NCBI GenBank assembly: GCA_963726745.1
Contig: CAVSDR010000007.1
Span: 1 to 64,000, forward strand
Direction of reading: 5' to 3'
DNA length: 64,000 nucleotides
From: an uncultured Verrucomicrobiae bacterium
GTDB lineage: Bacteria; Verrucomicrobiota; Verrucomicrobiia; Chthoniobacterales; UBA10450
Shown here piece by piece: positions 21,001 through 24,000 of this stretch (its first letter is position 1; each line of letters opens with the position of its first letter). Made by a program: the position numbers.

Positions 21001-24000
21001 TAACGAGTAAACTCGACAGGCGCCGCGGCGCTCTAAGCGTCGTCGCCTAACAAGTCTGGACGATTTTCCTGCGTGCGGCGGCGCGCTTCGCCCGCACGCC
21101 ACCGGGCGATTTCGCCATGGTTTCCGCCTAACAAGACCTCCGGCACCTTCCAGCCGCGGAACTCGGCCGGCCGGGTGTATTGCGGGGCCTCGAGCAGGCC
21201 GTGCGAGAAGCTTTCCTCCGCGGCCGAGAGCTCGTGCCCGAGCACACCCGGGAGCAACCGCACGACCGCATCCACGATCACGACCGCGGCGATCGCGCCG
21301 TTCGTGAGCACGTAATCGCCGAGGGAAATTTCCGCGTCGACCAGATGCTCGGTCACGCGATGGTCGATGCCCTCGTAGTGCCCGCAGATGAGGATGAGGT
21401 GGGTTTCGCGCGAAAAATCCTGCGCAAGTTGCTGGCTAAATCTTTGCCCCTGCGGCGTGGTCAGGAGGACCTTGCTCGTCTCGGTGCGGAGCGATTCGAC
21501 CGCGGCGAAAATCGGCTCCGGTTTCAGCACCATCCCCTGCCCGCCGCCGAAGGGCGCGTCGTCGACAATGCGATGCTTGTCCGTGGTCCAATCGCGCAGG
21601 TTGTGAATTTCGAGCTCGAGCTGGCCGGCGGCCTGCGCGCGTTTCATCATGCTTTCGCCCAAGGGCGCGCGACAGATTTCCGGGAAGAGCGTGAGGATGT
21701 CGATCCGCATGGTGCGCCGGCATTCTAGCGCGGCGAGGGCCGGAGGCGAACCGCGAGAACAGTGCTTGAAGGCGAGGCCGGGCATTGGCTAGAAGAAATC
21801 GTGCGCCGCGCCGCTTTCCAGACCTTCGAGGAAGTGCGCGTCCGTTTCGCCGCCGGCGAGATCCTGCGCGCCTCGCCCCGTGAGCTCGAGCAGGCGCTGG
21901 CGACGCTCGCGAGCGAGAGCTTCGAGGATGCGGCGCGCCGCGCGCAGGCTCGAGAGATGAGCGCCACGCTGCGCGCGCTTCTGCAGAACCGCCACCAGCG
22001 CCAGTCGTCCAATCTGGCCCTGCTCGCGGTCTGCCTGGCCCTCGCGGCTCTGCTCCTTTCGGGAGCGCAGGCGTATCGCTCGTGGGTCGCCTATGCAAAT
22101 GCGCACGAGCCAGACCGCGAGCTGGGCGATTTCGTGAAAGCGATGCGAAACTCCGGCGCGGGTATTTTCGCCGACACGCGCACGGAGACGACCGTGGCCG
22201 AGCTGGCCGCACGCGCGCCAAGCCTGCGCCATGGCACGGTGCAGGCGTGGTGGGCTGGCGAGCAGGCGCGCCAAGTGCAGGAGCTCGAGCGGGAGGCGAA
22301 ACGGCAAACGCTCGCGGGCGATCGCGACGGTGCGGCGCTCAGTGCCAGCCGCGCAGACCAAATCCGCAACGGGATTTCCTCGTTGACCGCATTTGAGCGG
22401 GTGCCGCCGCGCTGAAAATAGCCGGCAACCTTACTCGACGATTTCGAGGGTCGCCTTGTGATCGTGGCGTGAAGCGGCGCTCGAGAGCAGGGCCCGGATC
22501 GCCTGGATCGTCTGGCCATTGCGGCCAATGATGCGGCCGACATCGGTCTGGCGCATGACCAGGCGAAAGACGGTCGCGTTGCCCGTAGTCGCTTCGGAGA
22601 GGATGACCTCATCCGGGAATTCCACGAGCTGCCGGATGACGAACTCCAGAAATTCTTTCATGGCGAAAGAGTAACGGCGGATGCGTCCTTGTCGACCAAT
22701 TGCCAGTCGAGCGCCTTGGAGGACGCTCGTTAGGCACGGGGACCCCTCGACTTGGCGGCGCTCGAGATCCCCGGACGGTTTACGCTTCCGCGGCGACCGG
22801 AGCAGGAGCGCTGGCGGCGACTTTCTTGTTCTTCTTGATCAAGCTGCGGACGGTGTCGGAAGGCTGCGCGCCCTGGGAGATCCAATGCTCGATGCGATCG
22901 AGCTTAAGCGTGCTGTTGTGCTCTTTTTTCTTCGGATCGTAGGTCCCGATGATCTCGATGAATTTGCCGTCGCGCGGGGCACGACTGTCGGCCACCACCA
23001 CCTTGTAATAAGGGCGATTGGTCGTGCCTTCTCTGCGTAGTCTGATTGAAACTGCCATATCCTTAATTTTTCATCCGCGCCATCTGCGCCATCATCTTCT
23101 TCATTTTGCCCGCGTTCTTCATCATCTTGCGCATCTGATTGAACCGCTGCAGCAGGTCATTCACTTCTGTGACCGTGCTTCCGCTTCCGCGGGCGATGCG
23201 CTGACGACGCCGGGCATTCAAAATGTCGGGCCGCGCGCGCTCTTCGCTGGTCATCGAAAGCACTATCGCTTCCGTGCGCTTTATCTGCTTCTCGTCTACC
23301 GAGAGGCCTTGGACGTTACTCAGTCCGGGGATCATGCCAAGTAGGTTTTCCAGCGGGCCCATTTTCCGCATCATTTTGAATTGGGCCAGGAAATCGTTGA
23401 AGTCGAAGGAAGCGGTCCGGAGCTTCTTCTCCATCCGCGCAGCTTCCTCCTCGTCGAAGGCTTCGGCCGCTTTCTCGACCAGGCCGACGATGTCGCCCAT
23501 TCCAAGGATCCGGCCCGCGAGCCGGTCCGGGACGAAGACCTCGAACTGATCGAGCTTTTCTCCGACACCGGCGAACTTGATCGGCCGCTGCGTGACCTCG
23601 CGCATCGAGAGGGCCGCGCCGCCGCGCGCGTCGCCGTCGAGTTTCGTCAGGATGATGCCGGTGATGCCGAGCGCTTCGTTGAAATGCGTGGCCACGCTCA
23701 CGGCCTGTTGGCCGGTGGCGGCATCGGCCACGAGGAGGATTTCCTGCGGCTGGAGGAACGCCTTGAGCTGCTTGATCTCTTCGATGAGCGCGCTGTCTAT
23801 TTCCTGTCGGCCGGCAGTGTCGAAGATCTGCACGTTGCCGTTTTGCGTTTCCGCCCAGGCGAGCGCGGCTTTCGCGGAACGGACGACATCCTTTTCATCG
23901 AGCGACGGAGTGTAAACCGGGACATCGACCTGTCCGGCGAGCGTCGCGAGCTGCTGAATGGCCGCCGGGCGGTGCAAATCCGAGGCGATGAGCAAGGGCG

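Follow-up and report, generated by a model that had tools for sequence, protein, structure and literature searches.

The ffh–rpsP–khpA–trmD cluster and the rimM slot

The window, meaning the whole 64,000-nt stretch of DNA analyzed here, comprises positions 1–64000 of contig C7 of a Chthoniobacterales genome (G000) that totals 3.41 Mb in 7 contigs and is 94.7% complete. By trmD, its nearest relatives are records titled Chthoniobacterales, Ca. Udaeobacter or Verrucomicrobia. The following features make up the locus.

23063..24382, minus strand: ffh (SRP54), at the head of the cluster; Pfam SRP54, SRP_SPB and SRP54_N
22780..23058, minus strand: rpsP (bS16); Pfam Ribosomal_S16, E 5e-26
22431..22661, minus strand: khpA, small KH RNA-binding protein; Pfam KH_KhpA-B, E 4e-19
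21711..22430, no strand: rimM slot, 720 nt, without a RimM-like frame; usually 20–148 nt in relatives
21762..22415, plus strand: slot gene, 217 aa, unrelated to rimM; a Chthoniobacterales family of unknown function
21033..21710, minus strand: trmD, tRNA m1G37 methyltransferase; Pfam tRNA_m1G_MT, E 2e-64

This operon layout, with an unrelated opposite-strand gene in the rimM slot and no RimM-like frame behind it, had been described in the survey's finding, and both coordinates and Pfam matches agree with that description. Homologues of TrmD align from residue 1, and no RimM is fused to its N-terminus. The slot gene has 70 matches including itself, and the named ones are hypothetical proteins of Chthoniobacterales or Verrucomicrobiota. 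Its structure model contains helices only (pLDDT 83.6) and matched no PDB fold at E ≤ 0.001; the protein has one hydrophobic stretch. The idea that it is a disguised RimM was ruled out: no RimM Pfam family matches (PF01782, PF24986), and the model is all-helical whereas RimM has two barrels. The gene is absent at 80 related trmD loci. The gaps flanking khpA form an insertion hot spot, with unrelated genes or long spacers at several Chthoniobacterales loci (window 21711–22430; L072, L073, L076, L078, L092 and L096).

Among the 80 trmD loci surveyed, 41 are Verrucomicrobiota-titled and have khpA upstream. The khpA–trmD gap measures 20–148 nt in 39 of these 41, and the remaining two carry unrelated inserts. 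In six outgroup loci the gap is 509–586 nt and contains a RimM-like gene. One Acidoferrum-titled locus also has a short gap; the other loci lack khpA in range. Upstream of rbfA, no RimP-like frame was found in 60 loci picked across families, 55 of which reach nusA, and these loci share no upstream gene. The claim that the usual gene slots are empty extends to relatives, where they are mostly closed. No conserved gene was seen to have taken over the rimM, rimP or era slots.

Absence of Era, RimM, RimP and RsgA from the genome and its relatives

We searched 58,382 six-frame segments of the genome by unfiltered hmmsearch with our own profiles for RimM, RimP, the Era KH domain and Era. The best RimM score was 8.0 bits (E 5); this profile was built from 142 sequences without E. 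coli RimM, which nonetheless scores 135 bits. The best RimP score was 7.7 bits. Here the control is weaker, because E. coli RimP is itself part of the profile. The top match of the Era KH profile was uS3, and KH-domain matches in the genome comprised uS3, KhpA, NusA and three weaker frames. The top match of the Era profile (TIGR00436) was Der, which aligns to positions 2–166 of 270 only and so falls short of full length. No gene of the genome joins a single TRAFAC GTPase domain to a type II KH domain as Era does. Searched with default filters, the RsgA profile returned P-loops only, with no circularly permuted GTPase carrying an OB fold and zinc finger. The survey had cautioned that very divergent homologues could escape profiles; for RimM, RimP and Era, the unfiltered six-frame search found none.

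With a generic GTPase profile we obtained 23 matches, spread over 22 frames. Apart from three weak frames below cut-off, 19 were classified, and none is Era or RsgA. They are Der, MnmE, Obg, two HflX, YchF, IF2, TypA, SelB, RF3, EF-Tu, EF-G, CysN, LepA, a dynamin-like protein (C3:209656–211983), a Ras/Roc-type small GTPase (C3:1022426–1023316) and three ABC ATPases. One of the two HflX genes (C6:55888–57240, C6:174976–176625) adjoins the single 16S rRNA gene. EF-G (C4:237457–239570) and IF2 (C3:354510–356247) are each split across two frames, the RF3 and CysN frames are short, and a dnaX-like gene (window 18016–19724) looks frameshifted; these breaks are probably assembly indels. No RbgA was seen among the GTPases, and a search of five PVC genomes (this one and four others) turned up no YsxC/EngB, a GTPase of the 50S. 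Large-subunit assembly may therefore be streamlined too.

Gene order gives the same picture. No era lies near ybeY, rnc or recO. As the survey reported, nusA (start C3:352604) has no rimP in its usual place ahead of it, with ~95 nt separating it from an opposite-strand gene; no RimP domain (PF02576) was found elsewhere in the genome either. PRC-barrel proteins of the genome were considered as RimM halves and rejected, with tandem PRC proteins below cut-off in three of four relatives. RbfA, KsgA, YbeY and bS21 are present. Together, the six-frame searches agree that Era, RimM, RimP and RsgA are missing from this genome, its GTPases belonging to other families.

We then scored one set of 201 Verrucomicrobiota genomes, each at least 90% complete, for every factor; the counts are samples, and the exact claim is that a factor was not found in the genomes searched. 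RbfA, the positive control, was found in 201/201. RimM was found in none of the 201 and RimP in one (G251), a match close to a contig end that has lpxD, lpxC and nusA as neighbours in what reads as a Bacteroidales-type layout, and treated as contamination. With only first-look candidates scored (11 per genome for Era and 16 for RsgA), Era was found in 69 genomes and RsgA in 71. The Era count splits into 0/67 in this class, as the survey had claimed, and 69/134 in other classes. All four factors were missing together in 91/201. The Era of L028 (G127) looked by eye unlike those of L029 and L030, a possible transfer or contamination.

At the level of the order, 121 genomes gave no Era: the best matches were all E 6.6e-27 or weaker, and those listed cover the G domain only. 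Some of these genomes were flagged as over cut-off for Era because the two G domains of Der had been summed. RsgA was present in 19/121 order genomes and in 0/12 family genomes. For RimM and RimP, coverage of the order comes from the phylum sample (6 order genomes), 5 genomes for RimM, and gene order. Single-contig and 100%-complete relatives show the same absences. The earlier claim of order-wide loss therefore stands for Era and falls for RsgA. Likewise, 30S maturation without all four factors describes this genome and the family as sampled, but the order is the wrong scope either way: the absence of RimM and RimP reaches across the phylum and into planctomycetes, Era is missing class-wide and in other lineages, and RsgA is patchy within the order.

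Beyond the phylum, we drew 24 genomes, of unstated completeness, from a list of 80 16S loci. RimM was found in 0/12 Planctomycetota, 0/4 Omnitrophota, 0/1 Chlamydiaceae, 0/1 Auribacterota, 0/1 Elusimicrobia and 0/1 Kiritimatiellota, and in 4/4 others. RimP was found in 8 of the 24, including 0/12 Planctomycetota and 4/4 Omnitrophota. Era was also found in eight: in none of ten planctomycetes of 5.1–10.8 Mb (five with single-chromosome records), in one of two Brocadiales and in two of four Omnitrophota. Cultured planctomycetes were among those tested by name. These data show that the absences are a real, lineage-wide feature and not peculiar to this window. The loss is old and nested across PVC, with RimM missing in all sampled and RimP in Verrucomicrobiota and Planctomycetota. 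Judged from this nesting, the loss looks staged, the simplest order being RimM, then RimP, then Era.

In a tree of NusA plus IF2 from 32 genomes (quick LG+G4), Era state changes at least five times within Verrucomicrobiota, where a change may be a loss or a regain. A single Era-less clade was rejected on the same 32 rows and model (AU p about 1e-102), with Era state fixed beforehand, yet after sight of a first tree. RsgA is patchy across lineages, even inside the order.

The retained RbfA, rRNA and ribosomal proteins

The survey had listed RbfA, KsgA and YbeY as remaining. All three are present, but the RbfA is non-standard. Its gene lies on another contig.

C3:356319–356690: rbfA; PF02033 match, E 1e-25; after infB and before truB (neighbours by eye)

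In the accessible parts of the structural reports, E. coli 16S A1531–C1533 bind near the RbfA AxG motif and A1534–C1535 stack on a 'highly conserved' RbfA Phe78 (PMC8177701), while in S. aureus an RbfA Asp27–Arg29 loop binds the 16S tail (PMC9917171). RbfA of this genome lacks all three binders of 16S 1531–1536, namely the AxG kink, Phe78 and the DPR loop. Among 61 Verrucomicrobiota RbfA sequences, Ala75 occurs in 2, Gly77 in 14 and both (AxG) in none; position 78 is aromatic in 3/61 and the DPR loop is found in 0/61. Outside the phylum, in a set of only 10 sequences, the corresponding numbers are 10 for Ala75, 7 for Ala75 with Gly77, 9 for aromatic 78 and 8 for DPR. Verrucomicrobiota RbfA instead has a conserved patch of its own, formed by Q80 and K90-Y91-T92-P93 (E. 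coli numbers), with K90 in 54/61, Y91 in 49/61, T92 in 47/61 and Q80 in 46/61. The changes do not track RsgA: within the phylum, genomes that have RsgA or Era and genomes that lack them show the same ones. Two planctomycetes without Era, RimM and RimP have an RbfA that still carries AxG, aromatic 78 and DPR. A structure model from the single sequence was unusable (pLDDT 54). At the level of sequence, a retained RbfA lacking the residues known to touch the 16S 3' end is a new observation; no mention of it turned up among the papers listed by a search for it.

On the RNA side, the 16S of this genome matches all 1533 model positions, and neither bS18 Arg43 nor the 3' site of Era and RbfA has changed. 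Loss of the anti-Shine–Dalgarno or of the Era site is thus ruled out, the 16S tail being intact. One base pair stands out. C955–G1225 is present in 22/22 16S sequences (this genome, 1 Kiritimatiellota and 20 planctomycetes) versus 0/8 non-PVC sequences, which have U–A. The pair belongs to helix 30, and RimM has been modelled at the h29/h30/h42 junction (PMC3575805, as far as available). Two Omnitrophota 16S have U955–A1225 and the Chlamydiaceae one has U955, and their genomes lack a RimM match. C955–G1225 is not needed for RimM loss. In Actinobacteria, moreover, C955 occurs together with RimM.

Among ribosomal proteins, uS19 Gly82 is replaced in 39/53 RimM-less genomes (kept in 14/53) versus 1/5 with RimM. 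Position 82 varies freely, and relaxed constraint fits as well as adaptation. By eye, nothing was distinctive in the uS13 C-terminal region, and no compensating change was found that accounts for RimP loss. uS11 (C4:223374–224072), which neighbours the Era/RbfA/YbeY site, has a long N-terminal extension rich in Ala, Pro and Lys, which measures ~100 residues provided that the upstream start is correct.

We also compared the share of ribosomal protein genes with an SD-like duplex, having dropped 9/62 loci with under 8 genes; the genomes are not independent. The share is 0.35 here, with a median of 0.32 in 19 class genomes, and 0.79–0.95 in 8 Era-positive genomes. Yet Era-less G123, G256 and G331 have shares of 0.79, 1.0 and 0.87. 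Low Shine–Dalgarno use as a cause of Era loss is ruled out: it is a class trait, and use is high in other Era-less lineages. In most class genomes, SD use in ribosomal protein genes is near background despite an intact anti-SD (L424–L441; G000 C4:221000–241500). Genome-wide, a crude count without a positive control showed no SD 4-mer enrichment here (19.6% versus 19.6% of 1288 starts).

Possible routes to a 30S subunit without the four factors

Loss of assembly factors is itself known. In Patescibacteria/CPR, rimM and rimP are nearly absent and era is lost in many classes (Amikura et al. 2025, PMC12641178, available in part), and the same three genes are missing here. But in CPR the genomes are reduced, the rRNA is truncated, and der, obgE and rbfA are lost too (same partial source), whereas the genomes considered here are mostly 2–6 Mb, those of planctomycetes 5–11 Mb, and G000 has a full-length 16S along with Der, Obg, RbfA, KsgA and YbeY. 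At 3.4 Mb, it does not show the genome-reduction type of loss, in which a small genome goes with shortened rRNA and the absence of Der, Obg or RbfA. Verrucomicrobiota and PVC are never mentioned in the main text of PMC12641178 as available; a table there places Akkermansia and Chthoniobacter in one class, and its supplement holds a genome list and pooled percentages, with no per-phylum factor table in the part seen. The accessible text of a 2023 review (PMC10582724) records Era loss in Chlamydia, Dependentiae and CPR, with a patchy state in Planctomycetota per a legend, and limits it to 'extremely genome-reduced groups'. That a PVC lineage, Chlamydia, had lost era secondarily was already known. 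Unlike the cases in that review, whose available text contains no 'Verrucomicrobi', 132/201 Verrucomicrobiota lack Era, in several lineages and on a background without RimM and RimP. Nor does the Methylacidiphilum genome paper (PMC2474590), in the portion available, mention Era or RimM. We found no published account of this loss in Verrucomicrobiota, most subscription literature lying outside the search. Public presence tables or GTPase-distribution reviews may already show the Era gap. What is new is the loss of assembly factors in large genomes together with a remodelled RbfA, and such an assembly route seems to have been described by nobody so far.

Set against the late 30S pathway of E. 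coli (RimM, Era, RbfA, RimP, RsgA and KsgA; PMC9032327 and PMC8177701, each as far as available), the present case retains RbfA, KsgA, YbeY, bS21, bS18 Arg43 and the 16S 3' tail. It differs in that four factors are gone and RbfA is without AxG, Phe78 and the DPR loop. We tentatively favor, at somewhat below even confidence, a rewired and factor-light route of 30S maturation as the best explanation. The hand-over at the 3' end, in which Era is followed by RbfA and RbfA is released by RsgA, would have collapsed. RbfA, to go by its residues, may bind weakly or differently and, by analogy, could depart alone or with IF3, needing no GTPase. The analogies, both from partially available papers, are RbfA mutants whose spontaneous dissociation bypasses RsgA (PMC9032327) and the ability of IF3 to release RbfA (PMC9917171). 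KsgA and YbeY would stay on as checkpoints, and folding of the head without RimM would perhaps be aided by intrinsic changes, for instance the helix-30 C–G pair and a freed tail of uS19. We propose that RsgA is optional and Era repeatedly droppable because RbfA leaves unaided and the hand-over is gone. E. coli bypass mutants offer a parallel in kind: there, small changes in RbfA, ribosomal proteins or rRNA stand in for a factor, with RbfA alleles suppressing rsgA loss and changes in uS13, uS19, h31 and h33b suppressing rimM defects (PMC9032327, PMC3575805, in their accessible parts). Against the factor-light route, no single compensating change fits all lineages.

It is rather unlikely, in our estimation, that unrelated lineage-specific proteins have replaced RimM, RimP or Era. 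The candidates are KhpA/KhpB and a PVC signature protein encoded as follows.

C3:223391–223546: PVC small basic signature protein (TIGR04137); immediately followed by a gene resembling an rRNA pseudouridine synthase (by eye)

The signature protein occurs in 196/201 phylum genomes and 0/14 controls, mirroring RimM (0/201) and RimP (1/201), and in G188 its gene follows era on the same strand at a distance of 143 nt. In E. coli, moreover, RimP loss is not suppressed by other known factors (PMC9032327, as available). But the protein does not track Era and has already been proposed as an L30 substitute (PMC7203096, available in part); L30 itself is missing here, and among 60 loci just 6, none of them PVC, carry it. 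No solved structural relative of it was found. KhpA is a KH protein kept adjoining rpsP, yet it has its usual partner, a KhpB-like frame (KH plus R3H, by eye) at C6:518924–519430, adjoins rimM in outgroups and is absent from this slot in three loci. That no conserved gene fills the rimM, rimP and era slots also speaks against replacement.

Another view does without compensation: assembly would simply be faster with the factors, PVC bacteria, growing slowly, would cope with a slower process, and the changes in RbfA and uS19 would reflect drift once selection had relaxed. Era is indeed non-essential in some bacteria (PMC10582724, as available), YsxC was not found in 5/5 genomes, a RimP match is absent from four of five non-Verrucomicrobiota genomes (completeness unknown), and uS19 position 82 is free to vary. 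Yet drift does not predict an RbfA kept in every genome with a new conserved patch, defects are severe wherever era can be deleted (same review, same part), and an acidobacterial genome retains both RimM and RimP. We judge tolerance alone improbable. Least credible of all, and largely refuted, is an artefact, with genes that have diverged beyond recognition or are hidden by frameshifts or gaps in the assembly. The incompleteness of the genome (94.7%), the frameshifts in EF-G and IF2 and the use of first-look candidates in the phylum survey would allow for it, but the unfiltered searches, the complete relatives and the closed slots all argue against it, and the same searches pick up weak true matches (RimP at 34 bits, RimM at 31 bits) besides RbfA throughout.

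More doubtful than the factor-light route, though still conceivable, is that Verrucomicrobiota have a decoding-centre route of their own, with no canonical 3'-end clamp and no 30S assembly GTPase, in which folding of the head and pseudoknot is intrinsic or assisted by an undescribed PVC factor. If true, bacteria would have a second pathway for 30S assembly, and a group that is large, abundant and culturable would use it.

The essentiality of Era and the contributions of RimM and RimP have been studied almost only through E. coli deletions. In the present case, entire lineages of normal-sized bacteria do without these factors, and Era-positive and Era-negative sister groups share one background. 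The stated tie between Era loss and extreme genome reduction is thereby broken. Work in vitro and on synthetic cells could also draw on this naturally minimal complement of 30S factors, and the remodelled RbfA and an rRNA pair are specific parts to swap into E. coli.
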